NCBI GenBank assembly: GCA_026004535.1
Contig: BPJI01000001.1
Span: 431,424 to 495,423, forward strand
DNA: 64,000 nt
Source: Candidatus Parcubacteria bacterium
GTDB taxonomy: Bacteria; Patescibacteriota; Minisyncoccia; UBA6257; HR35
Direction: 5' to 3'
Position numbers and translations under genes: made by a program. Position 1 is the first letter of the stretch. Each line of letters starts with the position of its first letter. Below the pieces are notes generated by a model that saw only the letters and a list, made by a program, of their open reading frames with translations, did no database searches and had not been told where the DNA came from. Positions 1,665-52,845 of this stretch are shown here, in pieces.

Positions 1665-1674
1665 TGTTTTGTTA

Positions 1675-1745: not shown

Positions 1746-1918
1746 TTTAATTAGATTATATCATACATTCTTTTACATTATTAACTTTAAATTATCATAA
1801 TATAAATAATATAATTTATTACACTTGATTTTTAAAAAATTTTAGGATAAAATTATAAAAATTTAAAACCTATTTAATTTTGTAAAAAAAAATTAATTTT
1901 GTAAAAAATAAAAAATGG

Positions 1919-3360: not shown

Positions 3361-3530
3361 TATTCATTACCCGGATATGGAACGGATAAATTAACTGGAT
3401 GTAAACCGGATGATATTATTAATTATTTTTACTCGGATTTACACCGGATAAACTACCCTGATTATAACCGGATATATCTGGTATTCATCCGGGTAATTAA
3501 TCAGGTATTTAATCCGGGTAATCTATTTAA
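3361..3530. repeat. ccggat-word repeat element (direct block, then inverted atccggg block)
   Basis: About a dozen (a)cccggat / aaccggat words at ~11-13 nt spacing, followed by the reverse-complement words catccgggtaa / aatccgggtaa. Confidence 0.8.
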
Positions 3531-8775: not shown

Positions 8776-8776
8776 T

Positions 8777-8826
8777 TTCAACTAACCGTCTAACACGATA
8801 TAGCATCTTAAACAGTCAAATTAATG
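8777..8826. repeat. left copy of a ~46-50 bp direct repeat flanking the pilin cassette
   Basis: caactaaccgtctaacacgAtatagcaTCttaaacagtcaaatTaat, which matches 10675-10724 at roughly 46 of 50 positions. Confidence 0.75.
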
Positions 8827-8977
8827 TTTACGACGTCGTACGTCGTAAAGTAAATATAACGACGTGCGACGTCCAGATATTGAGAAAATAATATTTAGGA
8901 CATCGCACGTCTTAAATTATTTTCCGTGTCCGATTCCGTTCATTTCGCCTTTAAATTTTAGCACAATTTTCCACATC

Positions 8978-21613: not shown

Positions 21614-23689
21614 TTAACGAATTGTTATTCCATATCTACTTTTTAAATTTTCTTCAATTTTCCGCATTTCTAAGTTAACATCTTCATCAGTTAAACTTCG
21701 TTGGGGGTGGAAAAAAATAAACCTGATTGTCATTGATTTTAAATTTGAAACCTCAGAATTTTGAGGAAAATAAACGTCAATTAATTTTATTTCCTGAAGA
21801 TAATTTATTTTTAATCTCTCAATTTCCATCTTTAATTGACTAAATTTAATTTTTTCATCAATAAAGAATGATAGATCTCTGATAATTTGAGGAAAAATTG
21901 GCCAAGGATGAAAAACTTTTTTCATCACAGATCTTTTTTTTAATGTATTTGTATCTAATTCAATTACACCAACATTTAAATCAATGTCCAGTTCGCTTAA
22001 AATTTTTTTCTTAATTAAACCCAAAATGCCGACATTATCAATTTTTATTCCTGCGGTTAAAAATTCGTTTTTAATTTCTTCTAATTTCAAATTCAAGCAT
22101 AATTCTGAAGCAATAAAATTTAAAACACCCTTTAATTCCTTTAAAATTTCTTCGGGTGTTAATTTACTGGCATAAACGATTCCCAAATGATATTTCTCAA
22201 CCACGGATTCACGCGGATTTAAAACGGATTTGCGCGGATTATATTGAGCCACGGATTCACGCGGATTTACACTGATCTCTTTATAAGCTACTTTACTTAT
22301 TTCAAAAATTTTGATTTCCTTAAAATTAAATTGATTAAGATAAACAGATTTTAATAAATTAGGAATTAAACTCGATTGAAAATATTTATAATTTTCACTA
22401 ATTGGATTTAAAACCTCGACCACGGATTTTCGCGGATTTAAAATATCAACCACGGATTCACGTGGATTTTCTATACGCATAACATCATTTAATCTATATA
22501 ATCCTTGCAGTTCTTTCTCTCCATAAAAACTATAATTATGACCTTCATCATAACCAGCTTTGGTTAATATTTTTCTTAAAAAATTATTAAAAACAATATC
22601 TTCTTCAATGAAAATTTCTCTTAAGGGTGATTCATAAATTGGTTTAATTTTATTTAAATCATATATCCTTATAATTTCTTCAACAATATCTGTTTCCGTT
22701 TGTAAATCTAATCTCTCCAAAGGTACAATTAATTGATCATTTTTAATTTTGATGCCTAATTTTTTAAAAATTTTCAAAATTTCTTTTTTATTAATTTCTA
22801 AACCGGTGATTTTTTTAACTTTGTCAAAATTAAATTTTATTTTAGTCTCCCTTAATTTTTTCTCTCCAAAAATTTTTCTTAAAACATCTCCGCCTAAATT
22901 TCTATTAATTAAATAAGAAACCCTATTTAAGGCTTGCAAAGCTCTTATTGGCGCTACTTTTCTTTCAAAACGAAAACTTGCTTCTGTTTTCAAATTTAAC
23001 TTTCTTGAAGTTTGATAAATTTTAGTCGGGTCAAAAACTGCCGCTTCAATAAAAATATTTTTTGTTTTTAAATCAATTTCTGCTGTTTTGCTTCCTTTAA
23101 TTCCAGCTAAACCTAAAATTTTTTCTTTATCAGCAATAACAATTTCATCACCTTGAAGCTCATATTCTTTCCCCTCTAAAGAAATAAATTTTTCTCCTTT
23201 TTTAGCTAAACGAACATAGATATTGCCTTTAATTTTGTCCAAATCAAAAATATGAAGTGGTGCCCCATATTCAATCATCACAAAATTAGATAAATCAACT
23301 AAAAAGTTAATTGAATTAAAACCGTAAAATTCAACAAATTCTTTTAACCAACCCGGAGAAGGTTTATTTTCAACATTTAAAATTATTCTGCCAAAATAAT
23401 AAGGCGCTAATTTTGAATTAACAATCACTTTGAAGTTTAAACTTTTTGCTTTAGATTGTAGATTGTTAATTTTTAATTCTTTTGAGATTAAATTTTTTAT
23501 TATTGCTACTTCTTTAGCTAAACCAATTAAACTCGCTGCATCAGGATAACGATTAGGCAAAATATCAACCTCTAAAATTCCATCATTATAAACAGTCTCG
23601 AAACTTTTCATTGTCAATTCACTAGCAATTTTTTCCCAGTCTAATTTTTTATTTAAATATTTTTCTAAATCTTTTATTCTAAATTTCAT
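21614..23689 (-). CDS. pheT: phenylalanine--tRNA ligase beta subunit, carrying in-frame cacggat repeat insertions
   Basis: B3/B4, B5 and C-terminal FDX-ACB domains. NPRESVV..NPRKSVV peptide repeats are encoded by cggatt word arrays at 22196-22270 and 22425-22478. Confidence 0.8.
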   Translation of the reverse strand: MKFRIKDLEKYLNKKLDWEKIASELTMKSFETVYNDGILEVDILPNRYPDAASLIGLAKEVAIIKNLISKELKINNLQSKAKSLNFKVIVNSKLAPYYFGRIILNVENKPSPGWLKEFVEFYGFNSINFLVDLSNFVMIEYGAPLHIFDLDKIKGNIYVRLAKKGEKFISLEGKEYELQGDEIVIADKEKILGLAGIKGSKTAEIDLKTKNIFIEAAVFDPTKIYQTSRKLNLKTEASFRFERKVAPIRALQALNRVSYLINRNLGGDVLRKIFGEKKLRETKIKFNFDKVKKITGLEINKKEILKIFKKLGIKIKNDQLIVPLERLDLQTETDIVEEIIRIYDLNKIKPIYESPLREIFIEEDIVFNNFLRKILTKAGYDEGHNYSFYGEKELQGLYRLNDVMRIENPRESVVDILNPRKSVVEVLNPISENYKYFQSSLIPNLLKSVYLNQFNFKEIKIFEISKVAYKEISVNPRESVAQYNPRKSVLNPRESVVEKYHLGIVYASKLTPEEILKELKGVLNFIASELCLNLKLEEIKNEFLTAGIKIDNVGILGLIKKKILSELDIDLNVGVIELDTNTLKKRSVMKKVFHPWPIFPQIIRDLSFFIDEKIKFSQLKMEIERLKINYLQEIKLIDVYFPQNSEVSNLKSMTIRFIFFHPQRSLTDEDVNLEMRKIEENLKSRYGITIR

Positions 23690-23700
23690 TGTTATGTATT

Positions 23701-23800
23701 ACCCGGATAACCAACCGGATTATTTTACCCGGATGATTACCGGATAAATCCGGTTTATATCCAGGTAGTATTATCCGGTTAATATCCGGGTAAAAATATT
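23701..23800. repeat. ccggat-word repeat element
   Basis: acccggataaccaaccggatt..., then atccaggta / atccggtta / atccgggtaa. Confidence 0.75.
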
Positions 23801-23823
23801 TTCTGCTGCTGTCTAAGGTATTA

Positions 23824-26640: not shown

Positions 26641-26780
26641 AATACTACCCGGATGATTACCTGATAAAAATATCTACCTGGATAAATACCGGATTATTTT
26701 ACCCGAATGCTTACCAGATAAATCCGGTTTGAATCCGGGTAACTATATCCGGCTAATATCAGGGTAACTAGTTTCTTTAT
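26641..26780. repeat. ccggat-word repeat element
   Basis: tacccggatgattacctgataaaa..., then atccggtt / atccgggtaa words. Confidence 0.75.
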
Positions 26781-27152
26781 CTATTTAATACCCGGCGATG
26801 ACACAATCAACACCCAACTTTTTTTAACTAAATCTGCTTCTTCTAAAATGGGGTCAATAACTCTTGAAACCTTGGCACAGTCTTCGATATTTACTCCTCC
26901 TTCTTTATCAATTTTAATTATTAAAGCAAATCTACCATTTTCACTACCGAATTGAATATCAAACAATTTATAACCCATATCCTCGATTACTTCTTCAATC
27001 AATTCTCTGACTTTTTCTTTTAGGTCCATTAGATAAGCCCGCTGACAGCTGAAGAAAATTTTTTCAGGGCGATGATAGCTGCGACATTTATCATATACAG
27101 CCGACAGCTGCTGAAATTTTTCAACCGCGGGCAGCTGCAGATATATATTCAT
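26781..27152 (-). CDS. rimP: ribosome maturation factor RimP, N-domain only; the ORF's first ~40 codons are a cagctgc repeat element
   Basis: MDLKEKVRELIEEVIEDMGYKLFDIQF...VLIVSSPGI matches the RimP N-terminal domain. The upstream in-frame extension (27030-27152) lies inside the cagctgc array. The usual C-terminal domain is absent. Confidence 0.55.
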   Translation of the reverse strand: MNIYLQLPAVEKFQQLSAVYDKCRSYHRPEKIFFSCQRAYLMDLKEKVRELIEEVIEDMGYKLFDIQFGSENGRFALIIKIDKEGGVNIEDCAKVSRVIDPILEEADLVKKSWVLIVSSPGIK

Positions 27153-27535
27153 TAGGCAGACAGCAGCGGAAAATCTTAAAACGCAGACAGCTGCGGAAAT
27201 GCTTTAACTACCCGGATGGTCTATCGGATATAATTACCCGGATAGCTTATCGGATAATGTTTATCCAGATGAATACCGGATTATTTTATCCGGATGATTA
27301 CCGGATATTTATCTAACCGGATAACTTACCGGATATAGTTACCCGGATAAACTAACGGATATAATTACCCGGATTAATAACCGGATAAAAATACTCTATA
27401 TATCATCCGGTCTATATCCGGGTAGTTCTATCCGGTTCATAGCCGGGTAGTATTATACGATTATAATCCGGGCAGAAAATATTTTCAGCTGCTGTCTGCG
27501 GTAAATACTCTGACCACTGCTGTCCATATTAATAA
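27040..27535. repeat. composite repeat hotspot: cagctgc block, ccggat direct+inverted block, ctgctgtc block
   Basis: 27040-27200 holds gacagctg / cagctgc words. 27205-27480 holds ccggat and atccgg words. 27481-27535 holds cagctgctgtctgcg. Confidence 0.8.
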
Positions 27536-31280: not shown

Positions 31281-32143
31281 TACTGATGCTCACTAATTAT
31301 TTTTCCTCCTAATGTTCTTAATTCATCTAAAGCTTTTTTGGCTTCTTCTTTGTTTGGTGGCTTACCGTGCCATTCAAATTTCTTTTCCATAAAACTTACT
31401 CCTTTTCCTGGAATTGTATAAGCAATAATAACTGAAGTTCTTCTCCATTCTGATTTAGTTTCTCTAATTGCATCAACAAAAGAACGAATATTATGACCAT
31501 CAACTTCTAAAACATGGAGTCCAAAAGATTCTAGTTTTTGTTTTAATGGTTCAAGGGGCATAACATCTTCAGTTACTCCATCAATTTGAATGTAGTTTCG
31601 ATCAATTATTATTGTTAAATTAGGTAAAGGATTTTTGCCAAGCCACATATAGGCTTCCCAGGTATTTCCCTCTTGATGCTCACCATCAGAAGTAAGACAA
31701 TAAACATGATAATCTTTTTTATCTAAAATTCCAGCATAAGCAATACCAATTGCTTGAGAAATTCCTTCGCCTAATGGACCTGAACTGGTTTCTACTCCTG
31801 GAAGTGTTGTTCGATGAGGATGACCTTGAAGACGAGAATCTATTTTTCTTAAAGTTTTTAATTCTTCAATCGGAAAATAACCAGCAAGTGCCATTGCTGC
31901 ATAGCGAACAGGACAAATATGACCATTAGATAAAATTAATCTATCTCTATCAGGCCAATCAGGATTTTGAGGATCATGACGCAAAATATGAAAATAAAAA
32001 GCTGAAAAAATATCAGCCATTCCTAATGGTCCAGCAGAATGACCAGAACCAGCCTCTAAAAGCATTTCAATTATCAATTGTCTTATTTCATTTGCTTTCT
32101 CTTCTAAAAATTTCACCTTTTCATCATGAAGTTCCTCGATCAT
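31280..32143 (-). CDS. transketolase, N-terminal (TPP-binding) subunit
   Basis: GHSAGPLGMADI and TSDGEHQEG TPP-binding motifs. Confidence 0.85.
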   Translation of the reverse strand: MIEELHDEKVKFLEEKANEIRQLIIEMLLEAGSGHSAGPLGMADIFSAFYFHILRHDPQNPDWPDRDRLILSNGHICPVRYAAMALAGYFPIEELKTLRKIDSRLQGHPHRTTLPGVETSSGPLGEGISQAIGIAYAGILDKKDYHVYCLTSDGEHQEGNTWEAYMWLGKNPLPNLTIIIDRNYIQIDGVTEDVMPLEPLKQKLESFGLHVLEVDGHNIRSFVDAIRETKSEWRRTSVIIAYTIPGKGVSFMEKKFEWHGKPPNKEEAKKALDELRTLGGKIISEHQ

Positions 32144-32164
32144 TGTTTAAATTATAAGATTATT

Positions 32165-33142
32165 TTAAAAAGTTTCAAAATAAGAAAATCTATTTTTTGC
32201 TTTTCGCCAAATAATTTCTATTTTTTCAACCTTAGCTAATATTGGTCCTCGTTTTATTTTTTCTAAAAATTCTTGTAAATTCTTTTCTTTACCTTGAGCT
32301 AAAACCTCAATACTGCCATCTGTTAAATTTTTAGCATAACCAAAAATTCCTAAATTTTGTGCCCAATTACGGCAAAATAATCTAAAACCAACTCTCTGTA
32401 CTCTGCCATAAACTTTGACGTAAAATTCTAAATAATCTTTCTCTATATCTTCAAAACTTAATGCTTCTTCCAAGGTAAATTCATTTATTTTAGTTCTAAC
32501 TAAAGATTTTAAATAAGCACCACAACCTAATTTTTGACCAATATCATGAGCTAAACTTCTAATATAAGTTCCTGATGAAACTTCAACTTCAATTTTAAGG
32601 ATCTTTTCTTTTAAATCTAAAATTTTAATATTATAAATTTTTACTTTTCTTGGTTTTAAATCAACCTTTAAGCCTTTCCTTGCTAATTTATATGCTCTTT
32701 TGCCTTTTATTTTTATAGCTGAATAAGGTGGAGGAATTTGTTCTATCTCGCCAATAAAACCTGCTAATATTTTTTCTATCTCTGATATATTTAGGTTCGT
32801 ATCAGTTCGCGTTAAGCCATGAACCAGAGCAGAGCTCGGTTCATGGTCCTGAACCCTTCGTGGTTCAGGATTCGCATCGGTTCGCACTATGTTTCCGGTT
32901 ATATCATAAGTATCAGAGATAGCACCTAATTCAATTTCAGCAATATAAGTTTTTCTACTTTCTTTTAAAAATTTTGTTAGTTCTTTTGTATAGTCATCAA
33001 TTCCCAAAATTAAAAGTCCTTCAGCAAAAGGATCTAATGTTCCTCCATGCCCAACTTTTTTCTTAGTTAATTTTTTAAAATAATTAACAATCTGAACAGA
33101 AGTATAATTTTGGGGTTTATTAAACAGAACTAATCCTTCCAT
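32165..33142 (-). CDS. truB: tRNA pseudouridine(55) synthase TruB fused to a C-terminal acylphosphatase-like domain; contains an in-frame ggttc-word insert
   Basis: N-terminal TruB (HGGTLDPFAEGLLILGI). C-terminal VYGRVQRVGFR ... GYAKNLTDGSIEVLAQG acylphosphatase signatures. GC-rich insert at 32795-32905. Confidence 0.7.
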   Translation of the reverse strand: MEGLVLFNKPQNYTSVQIVNYFKKLTKKKVGHGGTLDPFAEGLLILGIDDYTKELTKFLKESRKTYIAEIELGAISDTYDITGNIVRTDANPEPRRVQDHEPSSALVHGLTRTDTNLNISEIEKILAGFIGEIEQIPPPYSAIKIKGKRAYKLARKGLKVDLKPRKVKIYNIKILDLKEKILKIEVEVSSGTYIRSLAHDIGQKLGCGAYLKSLVRTKINEFTLEEALSFEDIEKDYLEFYVKVYGRVQRVGFRLFCRNWAQNLGIFGYAKNLTDGSIEVLAQGKEKNLQEFLEKIKRGPILAKVEKIEIIWRKAKNRFSYFETF

Positions 33143-33214
33143 AGAGATTAATAAACTTAAAAGTTGAACTATTGAATTTAAATTGATCGAGGGGTAAATA
33201 ATCGTTAAAATTTA

Positions 33215-33397
33215 TTAAATAAAAAATTTGTATAAATCCTTAGTATTTTTATAAACATTAAATCTACCATCAAGAATCTCTTTTTTACTTAGTAGAACAT
33301 CTAATTCTAATCTTTTCCTTTTGATATCTCTATATATTTTATTAGATTTAGATATTTCTTTCTTCGATAAACTTTGTTTATAATTTTCTTTAGTCAT
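33215..33397 (-). CDS. hypothetical small basic protein
   Basis: 60-aa ORF, weak. Confidence 0.2.
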   Translation of the reverse strand: MTKENYKQSLSKKEISKSNKIYRDIKRKRLELDVLLSKKEILDGRFNVYKNTKDLYKFFI

Positions 33398-33438
33398 ATT
33401 AATGTAATGTTATTAGGTTTCTAAATTATTTTTAAATT

Positions 33439-33942
33439 TTAATAAATAAAAAGAAAATAATATAAAAATGGCAGTGATACCCAATAAAGAAAATTAGTTA
33501 TAAATTCTATAAAAACTCTGGATTTTGATTTTTTTACTTCATAACCCATTTTTTGTAAAAATCTCTCTCTTCTGAAAATAAATAATGTGCTTTCACCTGT
33601 TTTTATTTCTAGTAATAAATCGGGAATTCTCGTTAACATCAAAATTATAGCGACTGTAGTGACGCCTATATTAGTAAAATAAAAAATAATGTACAGATAT
33701 CCCAGGATTAAAAACAGTGATACAATACTAAGCACCTTAGCTGATTGCTCATTTTTTTTGATCTCCTGTTCAATTACAGAATGGACTTCTTTTTTTAACT
33801 CCTTAATATTTTTTGTCTGCCCATATAAAAGAGATCTCATAAACAGTCCTATTAAATTAGTACCTATAAATATCAAAACTATCCAAATTATTATTGTAAG
33901 TAATATATTAAAAATAATCATTTTGAAAGTAATAAAATTCAC
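33439..33942 (-). CDS. hypothetical membrane protein
   Basis: 167 aa with 4 predicted TM helices. Confidence 0.4.
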   Translation of the reverse strand: MNFITFKMIIFNILLTIIIWIVLIFIGTNLIGLFMRSLLYGQTKNIKELKKEVHSVIEQEIKKNEQSAKVLSIVSLFLILGYLYIIFYFTNIGVTTVAIILMLTRIPDLLLEIKTGESTLFIFRRERFLQKMGYEVKKSKSRVFIEFITNFLYWVSLPFLYYFLFIY

Positions 33943-34045
33943 TATAATTATATTATATTTTAAAAATTAACTTTAAAATAATTTTCTACCCTTATTTTTA
34001 TAGTCTCTTCGTTAAAATATGTTCTCTTTAATATACACAGCTTGT

Positions 34046-34663
34046 TTATTTAAATCTGCTTAGGTAAGTATCAATTTTCCAAAGAAGAACAACGATCCAA
34101 AAATACGCTAAGAAATTAACGATTTTGGTTATGTTAGTGAAAATAATTATTAAACTTCCGTCTGGGGGTAAAGTAACTTCTTGTATGAATTGAAAAACAA
34201 AAAGAAGAATAGAAGAAAATAAAAGCAACATTGATTCAAATTTAAATTTAAATTTCCAAGTGTATTTTATTGCCAATACAAGAAAAACTATATAGAAAAT
34301 TTGCGATAATAAAATGAACCACAATGGCATAAGTAAAATTCCTTTTAAGTTTTCTACTGACGTAATATTTGATAAAACATAAGTAGCTATCCCTAGAATT
34401 GATAGTGTTTTAGGTCTAATTACGCCATTATTTTTATAAAAATCAAAATTATATAAACGAGCATCCCTTAATATGGAATCATAAAATAATTTTTTTTCTT
34501 TACTAGATAAACTTTGATAAGCCTCTAAGATTTCTTTAAACTTTTCGGGATCACCACCTCTGTCTGGATGATATTTTTTAACTAATTCTCTAAATTTCTT
34601 TTTTATTTCCTCTTCTGATGAGTATTCTGGTATCCCTAGAATTTCATAATAGTTTTTATTCAT
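34046..34663 (-). CDS. DnaJ (J-domain) membrane protein
   Basis: N-terminal J domain YYEILGI...HPD. C-terminal half has TM helices. Confidence 0.7.
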
Positions 34664-34720
34664 CTTTAACTATTTTATATATTTATTTATAAAATAATTA
34701 TCTTCATTAAATCTTAAAAT

Positions 34721-37501
34721 TTAATATTTCATTTGCAACCTTATTTTTCTATTAATTTTTGCTTTTTCTAAAATAACATTCTTTGTTTTTTCAAATCGCT
34801 TAAAGTTTTCTTGGTTCAAAAATTCTTCAAGTTCTTTTTCCTCAACAAAAGCACCGATATAAGGAATTGTTGATTTTAATATTTTAATTAAAACAAAATC
34901 ACTTTTACCTGGCCCACCACCTTTTTCTTCTAATTTTTGCCAATTTTCTTTTAACCAATTAAAAGTGAATTTTGCTGCATTTGAATTTAAAGAAACTGAA
35001 TTGAAAAAGAAAATAGTCTGATTAAATCTAACTTGTGAAGAAAGAATAAATTCAAAAATAGAACTTAACTTTTCTAAATTTTGTAAATTACCAAAAGCAA
35101 TTAAACATTTATTTTGTTCTTCAATCAAATTAGTCTGATGATAATAATTCAAAAGTTTTTCTAAATAGTTATCATTAGCAATTAAAGCATTATTAAAGAT
35201 TGCTTGTTTAATATCAGGATGAAGTTTTTCTTTGTCTTTTAAAAATTCTTCAAATTTTTCTTGGCTGAAATCTAAAATCTCTTTATTCTTCAAAATTCCC
35301 AAAGAAAATAGAGTTTTTTGCCTTAAAACTGTTTCATAAGGTTGTTCACCTTCCCTCGGCTCTTTTCCTAAAATATCCAAAACTTTTAAAGAAAATTTTT
35401 CTAATAAAGCGGAAAGGTCAGAAACGGACGCGGAACGAACGGAATAAGCGGAACTGGTTTTTCCGTCTGTTCCATTTTTTCCGTGTCCGTTTCCGTCTGT
35501 TCTGCTTTGATCTGTATCAATTCTGCGCAGTTCCGCGTTTAGTCTGCGTTGGTCTACGTCTATCCTGCGTTGGTCTGCGTTTAGTAAATAATAATAAAAA
35601 TTTAAATAAGAAATAATTTCACTAAAAACAAAGGGTTTAGAATTATTGATAAAATATTTTTCTAAAATTTCTAAAAAGTTTTCAAAATTTTTCTCACCCT
35701 TTCTAACTAACATATCATAATCATGAACTAAATGAACCTGATCAATTTCATTTAATTTTTCTAAATTCTCTAAATTTCTTTTTAGAATTTCTTCATCATA
35801 ATCACTAACAAAAAAACTTGAATAGTTTTTATTAAGAATAAAAGTTGAAAAATTAGATTCAGGAATTGGGGCGATTTCTTCTTTTTCTTTTAATATTTTT
35901 CTTTCTTCTTTATTATCAATTTCAATCACAAAAGGAATTTTCCAATAATCTTCTCTGTCTTCTAAAAATAAGAATCTCCTTTGTCTTAAACAGTATCTGC
36001 CTTGCTCTTTTTTAAAACTTACCAAAGGATAGCCAACTTTTTCAATATAATCTTTCATAATCTCAACCACTGGCACACTCGAAACTTCTTCTAAGCATTG
36101 CCACAAATCTTCTGCTTTAGCATTTTGATAAGTAAATTTTTTAATATACAGCCTCAATCCTTCTCTAAATTTTTCTTCACCTAAATAATTCTCAATCATC
36201 CTTAAAACACTGCCACCTTTTTCATAAGATATCTCATCAAAAATTTCAACTGACTCATTTGGATCTTTAACCTCAACTTTAATCGGGTGAGAAGCAATCA
36301 AACCATCAGCATTCAAAGCACTAAAAACTTCATCCAAAACATATTTTTCTAAAATTCTCCAATTAGGATAAAAATTATTAACAGCTTTATAAGCTAAATA
36401 AGTGGCAAAGCTTTCATTTAACCATAAATCGTCCCACCACTTCATTGTTACTAAATTACCAAACCACATATGAACTAATTCATGAGCAATAACTTCAGCA
36501 ATTCTTTCTTGGGTAGATTTTGGTGTTATGCCTTCGAAAACTAAAAGTAAATTCTCGCGAAAAGTAATTGCTCCCCAATTTTCCATTGCTCCAGCAGCAA
36601 AATCAGGAACAGCGATTAGATCTAATTTTTTTAAGGGATAAGGGGAATCAAAATATTCTTCTAAATAATTTAAAAATTTTTTAGCATTTTCTAAAGCAAA
36701 TCTTACTCCTTCTAATTTTTCCTTTGGCGTAACTGCCACTCGAATAATAACTTCTTTATATTTATCTTCAACAAAATACCAATCACCAATTCCAATATAC
36801 AAAAGATAAGTTGACATCTTGGGAGTTGTTTCAAAAATCACTTTTTTCTTTTCATTAACAATTTCTTCTTTAATTGGCAAAGTATTGGAAATTGCTTTTA
36901 ATTCTTTAGGAAAAATTAAAGTTAAATCAAACGTTGCTTTTTTATCTGGGTCATCAAAACAAGGAAAAGCTTTGCGTGCTTCAATTGGTTCAAATTGAGT
37001 TGTGATTAAACATTTTTCTTGTTCTTTGTCTTTATATTTACTTAAATAAATTCCTCCTAAAACCTCTTTTAATTCTCCTTCAAAATCAATAAAAATAGTA
37101 TTATCTTTTTCAGAAAAATTATTTTTAATCAAAATTCCATCTTTTTGAACTTCAAAATCTACATCTTGGTCATTCACTTTTAGCTGATTAATTTTTAAAT
37201 CAACAGCATCAATTTTTAGAAAATTACCCCGATGATCACCTGATAGATTACCCGGATAATTGTCTGGCATATTACCCGGATAATCACTGGATAAATCCGG
37301 TTCATATTCGGGTAGTATTATCCGGTTAATATCCGGGTGGTTCCATCCGGTTTGAATCCGGGTAGCTGTATCTGGTTTTAATCCGGGTAAACTAATTCTT
37401 ATCTCTTCTCTGCCTCGATAAATATTCTTCTCTAAATCAAAGTCTAATTCAATTTTATAATTTCTAACTTCCATTATTTTTCCTTGATAAATTTTCAACA
37501 A
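34721..37501 (-). CDS. pepN: aminopeptidase N (M1 family) with in-frame repeat insertions
   Basis: GAMENWG exopeptidase motif and HELVHMWFGNLVT...WLNESFA zinc motif. The acggaa/ctgcg element at 35395-35580 and the ccggat element at 37228-37392 sit inside the ORF. Confidence 0.85.
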   Translation of the reverse strand: MLKIYQGKIMEVRNYKIELDFDLEKNIYRGREEIRISLPGLKPDTATRIQTGWNHPDINRIILPEYEPDLSSDYPGNMPDNYPGNLSGDHRGNFLKIDAVDLKINQLKVNDQDVDFEVQKDGILIKNNFSEKDNTIFIDFEGELKEVLGGIYLSKYKDKEQEKCLITTQFEPIEARKAFPCFDDPDKKATFDLTLIFPKELKAISNTLPIKEEIVNEKKKVIFETTPKMSTYLLYIGIGDWYFVEDKYKEVIIRVAVTPKEKLEGVRFALENAKKFLNYLEEYFDSPYPLKKLDLIAVPDFAAGAMENWGAITFRENLLLVFEGITPKSTQERIAEVIAHELVHMWFGNLVTMKWWDDLWLNESFATYLAYKAVNNFYPNWRILEKYVLDEVFSALNADGLIASHPIKVEVKDPNESVEIFDEISYEKGGSVLRMIENYLGEEKFREGLRLYIKKFTYQNAKAEDLWQCLEEVSSVPVVEIMKDYIEKVGYPLVSFKKEQGRYCLRQRRFLFLEDREDYWKIPFVIEIDNKEERKILKEKEEIAPIPESNFSTFILNKNYSSFFVSDYDEEILKRNLENLEKLNEIDQVHLVHDYDMLVRKGEKNFENFLEILEKYFINNSKPFVFSEIISYLNFYYYLLNADQRRIDVDQRRLNAELRRIDTDQSRTDGNGHGKNGTDGKTSSAYSVRSASVSDLSALLEKFSLKVLDILGKEPREGEQPYETVLRQKTLFSLGILKNKEILDFSQEKFEEFLKDKEKLHPDIKQAIFNNALIANDNYLEKLLNYYHQTNLIEEQNKCLIAFGNLQNLEKLSSIFEFILSSQVRFNQTIFFFNSVSLNSNAAKFTFNWLKENWQKLEEKGGGPGKSDFVLIKILKSTIPYIGAFVEEKELEEFLNQENFKRFEKTKNVILEKAKINRKIRLQMKY

Positions 37502-38794: not shown

Positions 38795-38799
38795 TTTCG

Positions 38800-38870
38800 T
38801 TGCGGGGGCAGGATTTGCACCTGCGTCTCGGGCTTATGAGACCCGCGTGGTCCTACTCCACCACCCCGCG
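38800..38870 (-). tRNA. initiator tRNA-fMet (anticodon CAT)
   Basis: Reverse complement reads CGCGGGGTGGTGGAGTAGGACCACGCGGGTCTCATAAGCCCGAGACGCAGGTGCAAATCCTGCCCCCGCAA. It has the C1:A72 mismatch and three G:C pairs in the anticodon stem, hallmarks of bacterial initiator tRNA. Confidence 0.8.
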
Positions 38871-39840: not shown

Positions 39841-39990
39841 ATTTTTACCCAGATTATAACCAGATAATACTACCCGGATATTAACCGGATATAACTACTC
39901 GGATTCAAACCGGATACAAATACCCGGATATAAACCGGTATTCATCCGGGTAATCTATCCGGTATTAATCCGGGCATATTAATAAAATCT
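39841..39990. repeat. ccggat-word repeat element
   Basis: taacccagat / aaccagat / acccggat words, then catccgggtaa / atccggtatt / aatccgggca words. Confidence 0.8.
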
Positions 39991-39993
39991 AAT

Positions 39994-40383
39994 ATGAATA
40001 GTTTAGTTATTAAAACAAAAAAGAAAAAAGAAATAATTGATATTACTGAAAAAATAAATGAGATTTTATCAAAACAAGAAAAAGATTCTGGACTAGTTTT
40101 TCTTTTTGCTTTGCATACAACCTGCGCTTTAACAACTGCCGACCTAGATCCTGGAGCTGAAAAAGATTATATTAATGCCTTTGAGAAAATAAGTCCTCAA
40201 GCAAACTTTATTCATCCTCATAATCCCGAACATTTTCCTGATCATTTTTTATCTTCAATTATTGGCACTTCCCTTCTTCTTCCTTTTGAAAACAAAAACT
40301 TAATTTTAGGCACATGGCAAAGAGTAATTCTAATTGAATTTGATGGACCGAGAGAAAGGAAAATCATAGTCAGGTTAATATAA
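39994..40383 (+). CDS. yjbQ: YjbQ/UPF0047 family protein (secondary thiamine-phosphate synthase-like)
   Basis: LHTTCALTTADLDPGAEKD and LGTWQRVILIEFDGPRERKIIVR, matching UPF0047. Confidence 0.7.
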   Translation: MNSLVIKTKKKKEIIDITEKINEILSKQEKDSGLVFLFALHTTCALTTADLDPGAEKDYINAFEKISPQANFIHPHNPEHFPDHFLSSIIGTSLLLPFENKNLILGTWQRVILIEFDGPRERKIIVRLI

Positions 40384-40401: not shown

Positions 40402-41832
40402 CTATCTCAGATTTTGTTTATATCTTTTTTCTAATTCTCTAAATCTATACCAAAGAAAAGCTAATAGGAAAATAATCAAAAACAAAAGAAATAACCAAAA
40501 AATATTTACTCCCCCAAAAGCTCCGATAAAACCTAACAGACTTGTATTTATACCTTTAATTTGCAAATCAGAGGAGAATGAATAATTAGCTCCAGGCGTT
40601 GAGACTTTAAAATCAATATTATAATTTTTAGTCTTTACTACACCCGAACAAGGAACATCTACTATCCAATCAACAAGACGACTTGAATTTGGTTCTAAGA
40701 CAAAATCTCTTTCGCTAGGTTTAAACCAATTACCAACTTCTCCATTTGCTTTAATGGTTATTTTTCTATTTACAGAAGTATTATTTATTAAGGTTAATTG
40801 AATTGTATTTTGAGCACAAACATTCACAGAATAGGTAGGTTCCACAAGTAAATCAATTAATTTATTATTATTTGTTTTTTGAATAGGTGTCGGCACCTCA
40901 ATACTACGGGTTACTGTTCGAGTTACTGTCCGAGTCAAATAAGTAGTTCGACCAACTGAAATTAATATTTCCTTAGACGACTGGCTGCCTTGATTATCGG
41001 TAACAATTAACTTAACCCTATAAGCACCGGAGGCTAAAGCACGATTAAAAGTTTTAAGATTAGAAACCGTTTCGTTGTTAATTATCCATTCATAAGAAAT
41101 AATAAAACCATCTGGATCATAAGATTGAGAAGCATCAAAAGTGACAATGGTGCCTGGCCGAATATCCTCGGGAGTAAAAGCAATAACAGCTATGGGTAAT
41201 TGATTTATTATTGACGAATTTTGCCCAGAAGAAATATTAACCGAACAAGAGGCTGATTTAGTTTCATTACCAGAGGTAACAGTAATATTAGCTGTATAAG
41301 TACCAGCCGAAGAGAAAGACCTAGAGCAAGTTGAGGAAGAACCACTGCAAGCACCCGACCAAGAATAAGAATAAGATCCATTGCCACCGCTTACATTAGC
41401 TGTAAAAACAACTGTTTGATTTACATTAGCTGGGTTAGGCGAAGCAGAACAAGAAACTTGAAGATTTGAAAAGACACAATTCGTTCTAAAAGAATAAATA
41501 TTACCATAATTTGTACCTCCGCTATTTCTGGAAGCAGCTCGATAAAAGTAAGTAGTACAAGGTTGAAGACCTGTAATAGTTTGGCAAAATCCTTGAGGAG
41601 GATTAGGAATAAAAAGAAATTGATCAGGCGTTCTGTTAGTCAAAGAAAAGCTCGATGTTCCCCATTCAAACCAAGCAGTTATATTAGGATCACCACCATT
41701 GTCTTGAATTTCACCAACCAAAGTAGCCCAAGTATTACCATAAGTTGTTTGAGCTGGACAAGTTTGAGCAAAAACATTGCTTCCCTCTAAGATTATAAAT
41801 ACTATCAAGATTATTAAAAATCTTCTTAACAT
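40402..41832 (-). CDS. cell-surface protein: signal peptide, FN3-like domain, two PKD domains, C-terminal TM anchor
   Basis: WFEWGTS...GLQPCTTYFYRAASRN FN3-like signature. Two PKD-like blocks (VVFTANVSGGNGSYSYSWSG... and IVTFDASQSYDPDGFIISYEW). C-terminal hydrophobic helix plus a basic tail. Confidence 0.7.
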   Translation of the reverse strand: MLRRFLIILIVFIILEGSNVFAQTCPAQTTYGNTWATLVGEIQDNGGDPNITAWFEWGTSSFSLTNRTPDQFLFIPNPPQGFCQTITGLQPCTTYFYRAASRNSGGTNYGNIYSFRTNCVFSNLQVSCSASPNPANVNQTVVFTANVSGGNGSYSYSWSGACSGSSSTCSRSFSSAGTYTANITVTSGNETKSASCSVNISSGQNSSIINQLPIAVIAFTPEDIRPGTIVTFDASQSYDPDGFIISYEWIINNETVSNLKTFNRALASGAYRVKLIVTDNQGSQSSKEILISVGRTTYLTRTVTRTVTRSIEVPTPIQKTNNNKLIDLLVEPTYSVNVCAQNTIQLTLINNTSVNRKITIKANGEVGNWFKPSERDFVLEPNSSRLVDWIVDVPCSGVVKTKNYNIDFKVSTPGANYSFSSDLQIKGINTSLLGFIGAFGGVNIFWLFLLFLIIFLLAFLWYRFRELEKRYKQNLR

Positions 41833-42307: not shown

Positions 42308-42991
42308 TTATAAAGTTATAACAGGTGGTAAGGTGATAACAGCTGGTGGTCTTACCGGTTGATTAACGGTTACCGAACAAGAGGCTGATTTAGTTTCATT
42401 ACCAGAGGTAACAGTAATATTAGCTGTATAAGTACCAGCCGAAGAGAAAGACCTAGAGCAAGTTGAGGAAGAACCACTGCAAGCACCCGACCAAGAATAA
42501 GAATAAGATCCATTGCCACCGCTTACATTAGCTGTAAAAATAACTGTTTGATTTACATTAGCTGGGTTAGGCGAAGCAGAACAAGAAACTTGTAAAGGAG
42601 CACATTGAGTAGTAAAGGAGTAAATAGATCCTCTTGAAGTTCCAGCAGAATTTCTAGCAACGGCTCGATAAAAGTAAGTAGTACAAGGTTGAAGACCTGT
42701 AATAGTTTGGCAAAATCCTTGAGGAGGATTAGGAATAAAAAGAAATTGATCAGGCGTTCTGTTAGTCAAAGAAAAGCTCGATGTTCCCCATTCAAACCAA
42801 GCAGTTATATTAGGATCACCACCATTGTCTTGAATTTCACCAACCAAAGTAGCCCAAGTATTACCATAAGTTGTTTGAGCTGGACAAACCCTTTGAACAC
42901 TAGTTTGAGCAATAGCTTGTTTTTTTGAAAAAATATATTGACCTAAAAAAACTAATCCAATGATTAGAAACAAGAAAGATGTTTTTTTCAT
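42308..42991 (-). CDS. truncated tandem paralog of the surface protein (signal, FN3-like, one PKD) ending in a VITLPPVITL tail
   Basis: About 540 nt nearly identical to 41230-41800 except for a ~75-nt divergent patch. Confidence 0.65.
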   Translation of the reverse strand: MKKTSFLFLIIGLVFLGQYIFSKKQAIAQTSVQRVCPAQTTYGNTWATLVGEIQDNGGDPNITAWFEWGTSSFSLTNRTPDQFLFIPNPPQGFCQTITGLQPCTTYFYRAVARNSAGTSRGSIYSFTTQCAPLQVSCSASPNPANVNQTVIFTANVSGGNGSYSYSWSGACSGSSSTCSRSFSSAGTYTANITVTSGNETKSASCSVTVNQPVRPPAVITLPPVITL

Positions 42992-45818: not shown

Positions 45819-45914
45819 TTTTAAAACATGAAATCTAAATAATATAAAATATCTAAATTTTATGTAAAAATAACCAAATTAAATATAACACAAAATAAAC
45901 AAAAAAACCAAAAT

Positions 45915-45956
45915 GGTCAATTTTTCTATTGCTACGTAGCAATAGAAAAATTGACC
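45915..45956. promoter_or_regulatory. perfect 42-nt palindrome (candidate operator or terminator) upstream of the yerC-like gene
   Basis: ggtcaatttttctattgctacgtagcaatagaaaaattgacc equals its own reverse complement. Its core TGCTACGTAGCAATAG recurs at 45289-45304 and 10592-10607. Confidence 0.6.
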
Positions 45957-46009
45957 AAATTAGGGATAATTAAAGATGAGTTTTTGATTTATAATTTAAT
46001 TAAACACAA

Positions 46010-46691: not shown

Positions 46692-47449
46692 TCAGCTCCT
46701 CTTCTTATTATTTTTATTTCTTTTTGAGTTAAATCAATTAAAGTTGAAGGTTGACCAGCGAGCCTTCCTCTATCTAAATAAAATACTTGGTTATTAAAAT
46801 ATTTCTTTGCTTCATTTATAGTTTTTGCTGGTTCGTATCCTTCCCAATTAGCCGATGGAGCAATTAATGGCCCAGAAATTTTTAAAATTTTTAAGATAAA
46901 TTTATCTTTGGGGGATCTAAAAGCTAAAGTTATTGTTCCACGATGAAGATAAGTAAATTTTTCCGATTTACAAGGAAAAATGACGCTTATCCTGCTTGGC
47001 CAAATTTTCTTTAAAATTTCTTTTTGCCAATCTTGAAGTTGAATTTTGAAAAGTTTTAATTCTCTGATATCTGAAATCAAAATTATACAAGGCTTTTTAG
47101 GGTTTCTTTTTCTTAATTTATAAACTTTTTCAACTGATTTTTTATTAAAAGCAGATGTACAAATGCCGTAAATTGTATCAGTCGGAATAACTCCAATCGC
47201 TCCTTCTTTTAAAAGCAGAGCTGCTTTTAACCAATCGAAGTCTTTTCTTCCCAGATATTCACCAACAGTATAATCACTTTTAATTACTCGATGACAAGGA
47301 ATATTTTTGTCTTTGTTTTTCATCATCAAATTTCCAACAACTCTAAAAGCTTTTTCATTACCAACTAATCTAGCAACTTGTTTATATGTCAAAAATTTAC
47401 CAACCGAGATTTTGCTTACAATTTTTAAAACTTTTTCCTTAAAACTCAT
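46640..47449 (-). CDS. fusion protein: N-terminal MGMT/Ogt-like DNA-binding domain plus C-terminal YrdC/Sua5 (TsaC-like) domain
   Basis: N-terminus has KNIPCHRVIKSDYTVGEY (the PCHRV alkyl-acceptor Cys motif). C-terminus has GVIPTDTIYGICTSAFNKKSVEKVYKLRKRNPKKPCIILISD (YrdC/Sua5 signature). Confidence 0.6.
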   Translation of the reverse strand: MSFKEKVLKIVSKISVGKFLTYKQVARLVGNEKAFRVVGNLMMKNKDKNIPCHRVIKSDYTVGEYLGRKDFDWLKAALLLKEGAIGVIPTDTIYGICTSAFNKKSVEKVYKLRKRNPKKPCIILISDIRELKLFKIQLQDWQKEILKKIWPSRISVIFPCKSEKFTYLHRGTITLAFRSPKDKFILKILKISGPLIAPSANWEGYEPAKTINEAKKYFNNQVFYLDRGRLAGQPSTLIDLTQKEIKIIRRGADYDKLNKFLNSKALSIA

Positions 47450-47454
47450 ATATC

Positions 47455-47512
47455 TTAGTATAGTCTGCGTAGTTCTGCGTTAGTTCTGCATAAGTCTGCG
47501 GTTTATTTTAGA
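47455..47512. repeat. ctgcg-word repeat element
   Basis: tagtctgcgtagttctgcgttagttctgcataagtctgcgg. Confidence 0.6.
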
Positions 47513-48027
47513 ATTTTGTATTTTTGAACTAATTTTGTATTTTGCCACCAATTGCCTAAACCTAAATAATTACCTGAATTGCTCAAACAAAGAATGGCCA
47601 TTAAAATTATGTAAATAATATGCTCATCAATTAATGGATTGTGGACTGGAGGTAAAAACCCAGCTAGGTACATTAAAGCAAGTATTAATCCGCCAAAGAA
47701 TGTTGAAAGTTTCACAAAAATTCCCAACATCAATCCCAAACCAACTCCTAAAAGACCTAACATAAAAAGCCAATCAACAGCTGGATTGCCTGCCATTGCT
47801 CTAAAAATTTCAGCAAACGGTCCCTTAACTGCAAATTTCAAAAAACCAAAAGTTGGTGAACCACCATAAAGCCAAGCATCTTTACAAAAATAATTCACAA
47901 CCTGAGTTTGAGCATCGCGACAAGTAGAAAATCCTAAACCAAAAAGCTTGTCTAAAAAAGCCCAAAGAAATATCCAACCTAATGAAAGACGCAAAATTCC
48001 TAAAATTAATTGTAAATTTTTATTCAT
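47503..48027 (-). CDS. DoxX-family membrane protein
   Basis: 174 aa with 4 TM helices and a DoxX-like pattern. Noticeably GC-richer than its surroundings. Confidence 0.5.
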   Translation of the reverse strand: MNKNLQLILGILRLSLGWIFLWAFLDKLFGLGFSTCRDAQTQVVNYFCKDAWLYGGSPTFGFLKFAVKGPFAEIFRAMAGNPAVDWLFMLGLLGVGLGLMLGIFVKLSTFFGGLILALMYLAGFLPPVHNPLIDEHIIYIILMAILCLSNSGNYLGLGNWWQNTKLVQKYKILK

Positions 48028-51540: not shown

Positions 51541-52845
51541 TTAAATTTTAGCACAAATTTCTAATAATCTATTATATTTTACTACTCTTTCACCTTGTAA
51601 AGGAACACCGATTTTAAAATAATCTGCACCAAAAGCAATTCCTAAATCAATTAGCCAATTATCATTTGTTTCGCCACTACGATGTGAAAAAATAGTAAAT
51701 AAATTATTTTCTTTGGCTAATTTAACAAAATTAAATGTTTCAGTTATGGTGCCGATTTGATTAGGTTTGACAATTACACCATCAACAGAATTTTTCTCTA
51801 AAGCAATTTTTAATCTTTCAATATTGGTCACTGTTAAATCATCGCCAATTACTTTAAATCCTTCTTTACGAAGTTCAGCAAATTTTTCAAATTCATTTTC
51901 TTTATATGGATCTTCTAAATATTTAACACCCAAAATTTTTAATTTTCGATAAACATTCTTCCAATTAACTATATTTGTTATTTGATTAGCAGCAATATCA
52001 GCTCCAAGCTCAAAATAAAAATTATTACCCGGATGATTACCGGATAAATCCGGTTTATATCCGGGTAAATTATCCGTATCCGGTTTAAATCCGGGCAACT
52101 TATCCGGTTGTAATCCGGGTAAATTATCCGGTTCATATCCGGATAAATTACTAGTTACTTCTTTTAAATATAAAAAAGGTTCATAATTATCACTAAAGTT
52201 TGTACAAAATGCTCCTTCATCGTTTCTTCCTAATGGTTTAGGCAATTTTTTTTCAATCTGATTAATAATACTAATGATCTTAGCGATTAAAAGTTCAAAA
52301 TATGCAGCATTGAAAGAATTTTTCCGTAAGTTCTGCGTCAGTTCCGTGTAGTGCTGTGTTATTAACCAATATTCCTGAAAATCTAAATTATTAAAAGAAT
52401 GCACTCCTCCACCAATAATATTTAAAATTAATCTTAGCATTCGTGTAGACTCGTCCTTATTTATTCGTGTAGATTCGTTTTTTAAATATTCAAACAACTC
52501 CAAATTTTTACTTTTAGCTAGAGCTCGAGCAAAACTGATTGAAACTCCTAAAGTAAAATTACCTCCTAATTTTTCTTTATTCTTCCCTGCTCTTTCAATT
52601 AAAAATTCATCTAATTCATTAAGATTTTGAAAATCTTTATTTTTTATATCTTTCAAAAATTCGCTTAAATTCTTTTTAATTTTTTCACAATCTAAACAAA
52701 CAACCTCATGAGAACCGATACTTTTCCCAGAAGGAATTGACGCTTTTTCTTTTATTCCTTCACTTTCAATCTCAACCTCGATTGTCCATTCTCCTCTTGA
52801 GTCTAAAATTTTATTTACTTTTATATCATTTATTTTCATCTTCAA
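51541..52845 (-). CDS. eno: enolase (phosphopyruvate hydratase) carrying three in-frame repeat-element insertions
   Basis: ILDSRGEWTIEVEI N-terminus, NDEGAF, YLEDP, IGDDLTVTN, KPNQIG, SHRSGETND and KYNRLLEI catalytic motifs. Inserts at 52024-52150 (ccggat), 52325-52360 (cagaac/ctgcg) and 52436-52480 (cgtgtagac). Confidence 0.85.
   Translation of the reverse strand: MKMKINDIKVNKILDSRGEWTIEVEIESEGIKEKASIPSGKSIGSHEVVCLDCEKIKKNLSEFLKDIKNKDFQNLNELDEFLIERAGKNKEKLGGNFTLGVSISFARALAKSKNLELFEYLKNESTRINKDESTRMLRLILNIIGGGVHSFNNLDFQEYWLITQHYTELTQNLRKNSFNAAYFELLIAKIISIINQIEKKLPKPLGRNDEGAFCTNFSDNYEPFLYLKEVTSNLSGYEPDNLPGLQPDKLPGFKPDTDNLPGYKPDLSGNHPGNNFYFELGADIAANQITNIVNWKNVYRKLKILGVKYLEDPYKENEFEKFAELRKEGFKVIGDDLTVTNIERLKIALEKNSVDGVIVKPNQIGTITETFNFVKLAKENNLFTIFSHRSGETNDNWLIDLGIAFGADYFKIGVPLQGERVVKYNRLLEICAKI

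Follow-up and report, generated by a model that had tools for sequence, protein, structure and literature searches.

The 64-kb stretch of DNA analysed here (the window) belongs to a Candidatus Parcubacteria metagenome-assembled genome (MAG) from a long-read metagenome of a Japanese hot spring, the paper on which is silent on repeats. On its minus strand the window carries a truB gene fused to an acylphosphatase domain, and inside this gene lies a GC-rich double hairpin of 54 nt; this element, its relatives in other organisms and its possible origin are the subject of the present analysis (coordinates are collected in Table 1). The open reading frame (ORF) matches the Pfam domains TruB_N (163.6 bits, 5.5e-48), TruB_C_2 and Acylphosphatase, as well as T. 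maritima TruB 1R3E (1.6e-48), and its product is 100% identical to NCBI protein KatS3mg096_471 of a Candidatus Parcubacteria MAG, on a contig of 556,583 bp. In the region of the catalytic-Asp motif (GTLDP), residues G33, G34, T35, L36 and D37 are invariant in our alignment of TruB orthologues (A1). The acylphosphatase fusion (32165-32880, the C-terminal third of the ORF) is shared with all 120 best homologues, and we thus regard it as clade-wide.

A first-pass annotation of this DNA had described two consecutive perfect GC-rich hairpins in frame in truB, and this description is borne out: the quoted sequence is present, and the inverted repeats abut with 0 nt between them, the first ending at 32846 and the second beginning at 32847. 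The quoted peptide, NPEPRRVQDHEPSSALVHGLTRTDTN, is likewise the correct translation in the truB frame of the ORF. The first hairpin (type 1 below) has a bulged A and an inner stem, while the second (type 2) is a simple stem with a 6-nt loop. GC content at the hairpins is 52%, compared to 28.5% for the window as a whole. As DNA, the hairpin region folds at -23.2 kcal/mol versus a shuffle mean of -9.7 (z = -5.9, a value reached by 0 of 200 shuffles), and the RNA in mRNA sense folds at -37.8 versus -22.9 kcal/mol for shuffles (z = -4.4). The window contains four perfect stems that are 9 bp or longer and include 5 or more G/C, two of them being the truB hairpins, as against 0.0 in 20 first-order Markov shuffles; GC-rich stems such as the truB pair are not expected by chance in this window.

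At the protein level, the insert splits the Pfam match to TruB_N into two stretches. Residues 88-113 correspond to only 2 residues of T. maritima TruB 1R3E in a structure-homologue alignment, and an alignment of 27 orthologues contains baseline TruBs of 301 aa with a short loop, while the others bear different inserts at this position and at 3-4 other sites. When loop length was compared across the 111 orthologues with recognisable anchors, 44 had the baseline loop, 42 had two residues more and 15 had four more, with the window unique at +24. The loop sequence of the window was found in none of the 44 baseline-loop orthologues, and the insert is missing from an orthologue that is 80% identical. 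In the AlphaFold model, which has a mean pLDDT of 86.7, values below 50 are confined to residues 91-115, where there is no secondary structure. The model and the alignments suggest that the site is a hypervariable surface turn which has been replaced by a loop predicted to be disordered. The hairpins had been placed within the TruB catalytic domain; they are indeed inside TruB_N, but since they replace a 2-residue surface turn with predicted disorder, they would lie outside the catalytic architecture. The alignment with orthologues that had been suggested as a check shows that the loop is not common to them.

Comparison with relatives bears on how the loop came about. Three metagenome contigs of one relative (L081, L082 and L083) are 86-89% identical to the window at the nucleotide level, and their blastn alignment with it breaks at 32888 and at 32796. 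Between these breaks the two sequences differ by 91 - 37 = 54 nt, or 18 codons; hairpin 1, of 30 nt, and hairpin 2, of 24 nt, together have exactly this length. In the more distant relatives L084 and L001 the truB loop is plain and AT-rich. Judged from these alignments, the truB hairpins are an insertion. The loop of the close relative reads A-ACGCAGAC-TC-ACGCAGAC-TGG-ACGCAGAT-TT-ACGCAGAC, that is, four direct words with a spacing of 10/11/10, and in that of the window the 54-nt double hairpin stands between G-TGCGAAC-CG-ATGCGAAT and CTTA-ACGCGAAC-TGAT-ACGAAC, in this order. The left-flank words of the window occupy the positions of words 3-4 (in sense order) of the ACGCAGAC array. All four words differ in concert between the two organisms, being of the GCGAAC type in the window and ACGCAGAC four times (GCAGAC) in L081 2391-2427, at equal positions and spacings, and this points to concerted evolution or to wholesale replacement of the array. 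The hairpins are bracketed by two 15-nt direct-repeat copies, TTCGTATCAGTTCGC and TTCGCATCGGTTCGC, which agree at 13 of 15 positions; judging by the concerted difference of the words, the event may have swapped the whole 37-nt array for a 91-nt unit bounded by the two copies. Whether the 12-nt perfect inverted repeat that surrounds the insert belongs to the element is doubtful, since by our estimate about 6 such repeats are expected by chance per window; it is probably coincidental. The truB copy also opens with CCA, 26 nt past a T-loop-like GGTTCGTATC, and the layout GGTTCGTATC...CCA|TGAACC resembles the distance from T-loop to CCA in a tRNA, a likeness that we treat as only a lead.

It might be argued that the hairpins arose locally, by slippage or template switching in a GC-rich word array already present in the TruB loop. 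This loop is a hot spot for word arrays in the clade, the GAAC-type flank words share GAACC with the hairpin arms, the hairpins are bracketed by the 15-nt direct repeat, and the window holds 18 other arrays of direct and inverted words. Those arrays are built differently, however, having numerous words at 11/14 or 10/11 spacing as well as nested palindromes, and the words GGTTC/GAACC form no other array within the window. For the latter reason the hairpins are outside the word-array class, while the words that flank them belong to it. The view of the first-pass annotation that this was a further word family thus applies only to the flanks, where GTTCG/GTTCGC words form a short array positionally equivalent to the four-word ACGCAGAC array of the relative; the hairpins are members of a distinct, dispersed double-hairpin family. 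We consider a local origin to be very unlikely, because both hairpins match, in stem and in loop, family members at unrelated loci of other organisms.

The family was collected by scanning metagenome contigs for the pattern TGAACC-N(3-15)-GGTTCA-N6-TGAACC-N(3-15)-GGTTCA, for which we estimated a chance expectation of less than one match. The scan returned 55 loci (numbered with the prefix L), and 21 of these, with a GC content of about 0.52 or less and representing about 13 distinct places, bear the doublet. Matches of high GC content (above 0.55, e.g. TGAACCGTGTGGTTCA tandems in soil contigs) appear to be unrelated and were excluded. The search for other copies that had been proposed in the first-pass annotation thus finds none elsewhere in the window, but does find them in metagenome loci. 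The outer stem of the family is CCnTGAACC/GGTTCAnGG with a covarying third position, and the arms in the window (CCATGAACC/GGTTCATGG and TCCTGAACC/GGTTCAGGA) conform to it. Type 1 hairpins have the 30-nt consensus CCnTGAACC-A-Gnnn-nnn-nnnC-GGTTCAnGG, and type 2 hairpins the 24-nt consensus CCnTGAACC-ACGTnG-GGTTCAnGG. The truB copy shows the bulged A, 4-bp inner stem and 3-nt loop of type 1 and the 6-nt loop of type 2 (ACGTnG or its complement); on the mRNA strand this loop is ACGAAG, which fits the consensus and is nearest to the loops of L120 (CTTCGC) and L108. The stems of a doublet stand 0-2 nt apart, as they do in truB, and the doublet is two-fold symmetric, the second hairpin being the inverted form of the first. 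The truB copy combines a type 1 with a following type 2 hairpin, whereas the others that we saw are pairs of a single type (1+1 or 2+2). The resemblance extends to the loops across loci (CCCTGAACCAGAGCAGGGCTCGGTTCAGGG in L096 and CCATGAACCAGAGCAGAGCTCGGTTCATGG in the window), and L096, L099 and L100 have type-1 loops almost identical to that of the window (AGAGCAGAGCTC), L100 coming from a close relative of the window organism (protein identity 78% for GAPDH and 74% for ParB).

The inner stem varies in sequence and is always paired; the outer stem is conserved in sequence, with the lineage variants TAAACC, TGCACC and TGAAGT. In the type 1 alignment (A4, 19 sequences) 96.6% of cells are paired, and 35 cells are double-changed against a shuffle mean of 8.9; the corresponding values for type 2 (A5, 17 sequences) are 95.3%, 26 and 7.1, and 0 of 500 shuffles reached the observed number in either case. 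Both sides have changed in 6 of the 14 type 1 pairs. A type 1 covariance model (R1) scores the first truB hairpin at 54.1 bits, although this hairpin is in the training set; copies outside that set score 44-54 bits (L141) and 27-52 bits (L144). R1 finds nothing further in the window, nor in L001, L081, L082 or L084. Rfam has no family for the hairpins, either at the gathering threshold or at E<=10, and at the former setting the window and 16 doublet loci gave matches to tRNAs only. On this sequence evidence, the truB hairpins belong to a structure-conserved double-hairpin family found in other organisms, and its hosts appear to be Patescibacteria and some other low-GC uncultivated bacteria. 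In viral contigs we found neither the doublet nor a relative of the GIY-YIG protein described below.

The truB of another relative (L150, JGI 3300077104) contains a single family hairpin, CCGCACC-A-GAAC-AGA-GTTC-GGTGCGG, at 10247-10281 in the same loop, with an R1 score of 24.3 bits (E 5e-5). The L150-type subclade, recognised by the peptide RTRTEFGAGQGNIE, makes up 15 of the 111 orthologues. Its hairpin in the same turn means either that the family struck this turn more than once or that the hairpin is old in that lineage.

Outside truB, the usual setting of the doublet is a different one. In L085, L092/L115, L100, L108, L122 and L123 it begins at, or overlaps, the last 1-2 bases of a tRNA gene, and often the CCA or CC of the tRNA itself supplies the start of the stem; elsewhere, the TGA or TAA in the first stem doubles as the stop codon of a small gene. 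The special "palindrome-first geometry" which had been proposed for the truB hairpins did not hold up, since they belong to a family usually located at tRNA 3' ends and by GIY-YIG genes. The small gene in question encodes a GIY-YIG protein of about 84 aa (PF01541, 59 bits), whose nearest solved structures are the UPF0213 proteins 1ZG2 (E 2e-08) and 1YWL (7e-04); it has a weak match to the PHROG "homing endonuclease" annotation and no defence-system match in PADLOC. It adjoins the doublet in 13 of the 21 pattern-selected loci, either 20-60 nt downstream or ending inside the doublet. An independent test that started from the protein gave the same association: all seven loci examined (six distinct) carry a doublet touching the GIY-YIG gene, and although the stem words are lineage-specific (TAAACC, TGCACC or TGAAGT), the architecture is unchanged. 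We found 142 homologues of the protein, in Nealsonbacteria, Paceibacterota and Patescibacteria as well as in a deltaproteobacterial MAG and a Hypogeohydataceae MAG.

Doublet and GIY-YIG gene together form a cassette of 300-360 nt with the doublet at one end. In five loci, representing three distinct cassettes, the cassette is bracketed by direct repeats of tRNA pieces (Table 1), and in L138 only a 3' half of tRNA-Asn lies beside it. The GIY-YIG gene is frameshifted in L110 and truncated in L120. In L144 (GCA_964423185.1, 4860-5331), the cassette lies between a 43-nt copy of the 5' half of tRNA-Gln and a complete tRNA-Gln, and genes for a large serine recombinase and HTH proteins (an integrative element) follow immediately downstream. 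Our literature search found no description of a GIY-YIG/hairpin/tRNA cassette, of the hairpin family or of the arrays.

The truB copy, in contrast, is solo and far from the two tRNA genes of the window (1674-1746 and 38799-38870), and in this it is not alone. On two contigs of one groundwater site, the genes of a Pyr_redox_2 oxidoreductase (L097) and of a 4HBT thioesterase (L134) each accommodate a solo doublet of 48 nt in frame; the two doublets are near-identical, differing by a compensatory pair, and both are loop insertions relative to solved homologues. Counting the window truB and the L150-type truB, in-frame occurrences number at least four and are spread over three or more unrelated enzymes, and the copies inside ORFs use a frame that avoids the TGA within TGAACC. 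The encoded peptides are similar, EPRGVQ(R/C)REPIVVHGK in L097/L134 and EPRRVQDHEPSSALVHG in TruB. Such similarity (EPRGVQ..EP..VHG in three proteins), the intact ORF and the hot-spring source of the organism could be taken to mean that the loop was selected for a new property of TruB, such as partner binding or thermostability, with the DNA palindromes being incidental. A recurring peptide is, however, what the same DNA element yields when it is read in one frame, whichever of the unrelated enzymes it lies in; disorder is predicted for the loop, and the 80%-identical orthologue does without it; and in this clade the content of the loop follows DNA repeat families rather than protein conservation. 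We thus find selection on the protein highly improbable. The in-frame copies bear equally on the question of an assembly or polishing artefact, which might be raised by the long-read origin of the MAG and by the exact sequence being known from one assembly (1 member, 1 contig). The chance of this is negligible in our judgement, as the insert amounts to exactly 18 stop-free codons inside an otherwise conserved ORF, and the element recurs in assemblies made independently, short-read ones included, where some copies likewise lie in frame within other genes.

A more serious alternative is that the doublet is useful to the host as an RNA structure, i.e. as a signal for 3'-end formation, processing or stability downstream of tRNAs and short genes, and that it was secondarily captured in truB, where it would modulate mRNA stability, ribosome pausing or expression. 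We regard this as the main rival explanation, though an unlikely one. Many copies lie exactly at tRNA 3' ends or over the stop codons of genes, covariation is strong, orthologous positions are retained in several organisms, the mRNA-sense fold in truB is stable, and one hairpin of L147 has a G.U on the transcript strand, corresponding to C.A on the opposite strand. Hairpin-cluster or tandem-hairpin terminators (PMC8355165) also consist of two adjacent hairpins directly after tRNAs or stop codons, as in the family; the family would differ from them in its outer stem, invariant across genera, in the lack of a T-run, and in that some copies lie in ORFs. An intrinsic terminator can be rejected for truB: we find 0 terminator-like sites in 32100-33300, and after the stems the mRNA strand reads CTTAACGCG, with no T-run. 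A terminator or stabiliser does not require an invariant TGAACC stem across genera, the two-fold symmetry implies no strand preference, and no Rfam family matches. Furthermore, the truB of the close relative is without the element, and solo copies in three unrelated ORFs, together with tRNA-piece repeats around cassettes, point to movement at the DNA level.

We thus consider it probable that the 54-nt double hairpin in truB represents a small hairpin element, selfish or mobile in nature, as a solo copy that is non-autonomous and that the protein tolerates in a disordered loop. The autonomous form of such an element would be the tRNA-associated GIY-YIG cassette, and either the nuclease or host repair acting on extruded hairpins would copy the doublet to new sites. 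A copy that enters a gene would survive only if its length is a multiple of three, if the frame avoids the TGA in TGAACC, and if it lands in a permissive surface loop. In truB, the copy would have landed in a turn already holding a lineage-specific word array, adding 18 codons (EPRRVQDHEPSSALVHG...) that form a disordered loop without a catalytic role, presumably with neutral consequences for TruB. More speculatively, and with less than even confidence, we suggest that the doublet is the cis-acting site of an undescribed minimal mobile element, i.e. a cassette of about 330 nt composed of the double hairpin and an 84-aa GIY-YIG nuclease that is a catalytic domain only; this cassette would home into tRNA genes and restore them via duplicated tRNA pieces, and solo doublets would be derivatives mobilised in trans that enter genes in frame.

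Several observations weigh against the interpretation of the truB copy as a mobile element. The window contains no second doublet and no GIY-YIG gene, as searched by tblastn with two family proteins and by R1. The link to the GIY-YIG protein is one of adjacency only, and action of the nuclease on the hairpins is putative. The exact pattern of the scan biases the sample of loci collected by way of the doublet. In every locus seen the family is low-copy, unlike classical REP (repetitive extragenic palindromic) or MITE (miniature inverted-repeat transposable element) families. We see no duplication of a target site at either L097 or L134, and for truB we found no clean pair of empty and filled sites with identical flanks, the flank words of window and relative being GCGAAC and GCAGAC, respectively. 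Doublets conserved at orthologous positions with compensatory changes also fit an RNA or DNA structure useful to the host.

As interpreted here, the kind of element is a known one, namely selfish palindromic repeats able to enter coding sequence; new is an association with an enzyme that can be tested. The best-known repeats written into proteins are the Rickettsia palindromic elements (RPEs). Reportedly described by Ogata and colleagues in 2000, they are said to be selfish palindromes in an AT-rich reduced genome that lie in frame in surface loops and leave the proteins intact. RPEs are about 100-150 bp long, Rickettsia-specific and present in many copies per genome. To our knowledge neither an associated enzyme nor a mode of movement has been described for them. 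The palindromic repeats in truB, L097 and L134 are like RPEs in being in frame with the protein retained. They are set apart by length and host: the element is 54 nt long in truB (48-60 nt in the family), consists of a separate pair of hairpins, is low-copy and linked to tRNA and GIY-YIG genes, and occurs in Patescibacteria-like hosts. Short and of defined structure, it is the more tractable of the two; and unlike RPEs, it comes with a candidate enzyme partner and is found preferentially at tRNA 3' ends, so that the mechanism is directly testable.

GC-rich hairpins also invade AT-rich genomes, including coding regions, in the form of yeast mitochondrial GC clusters and the double-hairpin elements (DHEs) of fungal mitochondrial DNA, the latter being two adjacent hairpins. 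We know of no association of either with a tRNA or GIY-YIG cassette, and the present family differs from them in its bacterial setting and unrelated sequences. UPF0213/YhbQ-type proteins (1ZG2, 1YWL) share the size and fold class of the cassette protein and are annotated as hypothetical; no link of theirs to mobility or hairpins is known to us. If the proposed mobility is correct, it would provide a function for these widespread nucleases, and it would account for part of the length variation and low-complexity loops in housekeeping proteins of the reduced-genome Patescibacteria. For annotation, such inserts are worth recognising, as they inflate and disrupt domain matches (the split TruB_N match being an example).

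A close bacterial parallel for a repeat with a nuclease is REP/REPIN-RAYT (PMC3733652), in which imperfect palindromes of 20-40 nt are arranged as inverted doublets, mostly extragenic at gene 3' ends, and flank a nuclease-type gene. Here, too, a small nuclease-type gene lies by repeats that it may mobilise, and the present family, if mobile, would be a REP/RAYT-like partnership on a different nuclease fold. The differences are several: the family consensus (AGCCnTGAACCAG...GGTTCAnGGCC) has no GTAG or CGTC head; the partner is a GIY-YIG protein (UPF0213) rather than an IS200/IS605-like Y1 transposase; the inner stems of a doublet differ, so that its hairpins fold separately, unlike in a REPIN, and some copies are inside ORFs; and instead of a high-copy extragenic spread there is one doublet in 64 kb, located within a gene. 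A scan of 31 ORFs of the window, covering roughly its first 42 kb, revealed no transposase. As regards a MITE, with terminal inverted repeats and a target-site duplication, the element is dyad-symmetric; the truB copy is flanked by the 15-nt imperfect direct repeat, and L097 and L134 show no duplication. On the side of the enzyme, phage T4 SegB (PMC2330249) is a free-standing GIY-YIG homing gene in a tRNA cluster, and the cassette resembles it in having a GIY-YIG gene lodged among or against tRNA genes and in its putative selfish behaviour. Seg proteins are, however, phage-borne, over 200 aa long and equipped with DNA-binding domains, whereas the family protein is chromosomal, of about 84 aa, a catalytic domain only, and accompanied by the double hairpin.

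Several other candidates were considered and rejected. A group I intron, as in the tRNA introns of Patescibacteria, gave no Rfam match, and the survey of those introns (PMC13011429) mentions neither GIY-YIG nor hairpins. In an integron attC site, RYYYAAC/GTTRRRY requires R where the arms nTGAAC/GTTCAn put C, and there are two hairpins rather than one long imperfect hairpin; no integrase was seen in the doublet loci examined. A T-arm mimic for autoregulation by TruB does not fit either, as GGUUCA is in the stems and not in a 7-nt T-loop, and the element is also in unrelated genes. A LexA/Cheo box (GAAC-N4-GTTC) has the wrong spacing, and the sites are at gene 3' ends; CRISPR or TIGR arrays would have variable spacers of guide length, of which there are none.

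Table 1. Positions of the truB double hairpin, its surroundings and other repeats (window coordinates unless a locus is named).
Feature	Position	Strand	Remarks
truB fused to acylphosphatase domain, host of the insertion	32165-33142	minus	ORF, Pfam and AlphaFold
Segment unaligned with relative L081-L083	32797-32887	minus	91 nt in window, 37 nt in relative
12-nt perfect inverted repeat, CTATCTCTGATA / TATCAGAGATAG	32776-32787 / 32911-32922		around the insert, membership in the element doubtful; neither arm kept in relative
Left flank	32794-32816		words GGTTCG (32794) and GTTCGC (32805); direct-repeat copy TTCGTATCAGTTCGC at 32796-32810; closes with AAG before the CCA opening hairpin 1
Type-1 hairpin, CCATGAACC-A-GAGC-AGA-GCTC-GGTTCATGG	32817-32846		30 nt; arms 12 nt apart; 9-bp outer stem, bulged A, 4-bp inner stem, 3-nt loop
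Type-2 hairpin, TCCTGAACC-CTTCGT-GGTTCAGGA	32847-32870		24 nt; 9-bp stem, 6-nt loop
Right flank	32871-32887		words ATTCGC and GGTTCGC; direct-repeat copy TTCGCATCGGTTCGC at 32871-32885
Bracketing repeats, tRNA-Asn 3' end	L108; L123		19 nt; 18 nt
Bracketing repeat, tRNA-Gln 5' end	L117/L110		13 nt
Bracketing repeat, tRNA-Gln 5' half	L144		43 nt
Word arrays	3406-3535, 6771-6860, 8776-8905, 10406-10485, 12276-12640, 16386-16650, 22196-22280, 23666-23815
Word arrays	26671-26790, 27071-27485, 35386-35610, 37231-37410, 39846-40010, 47431-47530, 51986-52195

The 18 GC-rich word arrays of the window are made of 6-8-nt words (CCGGAT, CACGGAT/CGCGGAT, CGCAGA, GCGGAAC, CAGCTGC and ACGACG) recurring every 10-14 nt, direct on one arm and inverted on the other, and they are found both between genes and in frame within them. 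CCGGAT alone is present in 90 copies where about 7 are expected, and 73 of these fall into 11 clusters with an alternating spacing of 11/14 nt; since not only the words but also the spacers are common to the copies, these are genuine dispersed repeats. Relative to the array-free L084, the arrays are insertions, adding 47 and 50 aa to the M1 peptidase and 17 and 21 aa to PheT, and the pheS-pheT spacer has grown from 2 nt in L084 to 134 nt in the window. The relative L150 has the same array architecture, with ACGCAGAC as its dominant word. The comparison of folding between strands is mixed, intergenic arrays slightly favouring the transcribed strand and arrays in ORFs the antisense strand. In the M1 peptidase ORF (34721-37501, minus), antisense and mRNA folds are -74.9 and -59.6 kcal/mol at 35400-35590, and -71.0 and -48.4 kcal/mol at 37240-37400. 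The antisense preference of in-ORF arrays may reflect selection against structure in the mRNA.

Gene content around truB differs between relatives. L081 passes straight from an MscS-like gene to truB, while the window at 33143-37432 has an M1 aminopeptidase, an ORF with a DnaJ domain and two small ORFs; the more distant relative L084 does possess the M1 peptidase that is missing in L081. The tRNA-Met (CAT) gene at 38799-38870 is missing from the close relative L082, where a 52-nt gap is followed by divergent sequence. An intergenic perfect palindrome of 44 nt with a 20-bp stem, TGGTCAATTTTTCTATTGCT-ACGT-AGCAATAGAAAAATTGACCA, is located at 45914-45957, and hairpins at 10529-10561 and 8827-8849, with stems of 15 and 10 bp, share TTTACGACGT...ACGTCGTAAA. 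Finally, two adjacent ORFs on the minus strand share an exact duplicate of 91 nt (41300-41390 and 42432-42522), and PKD domains are present in one of these ORFs (40402-41832).

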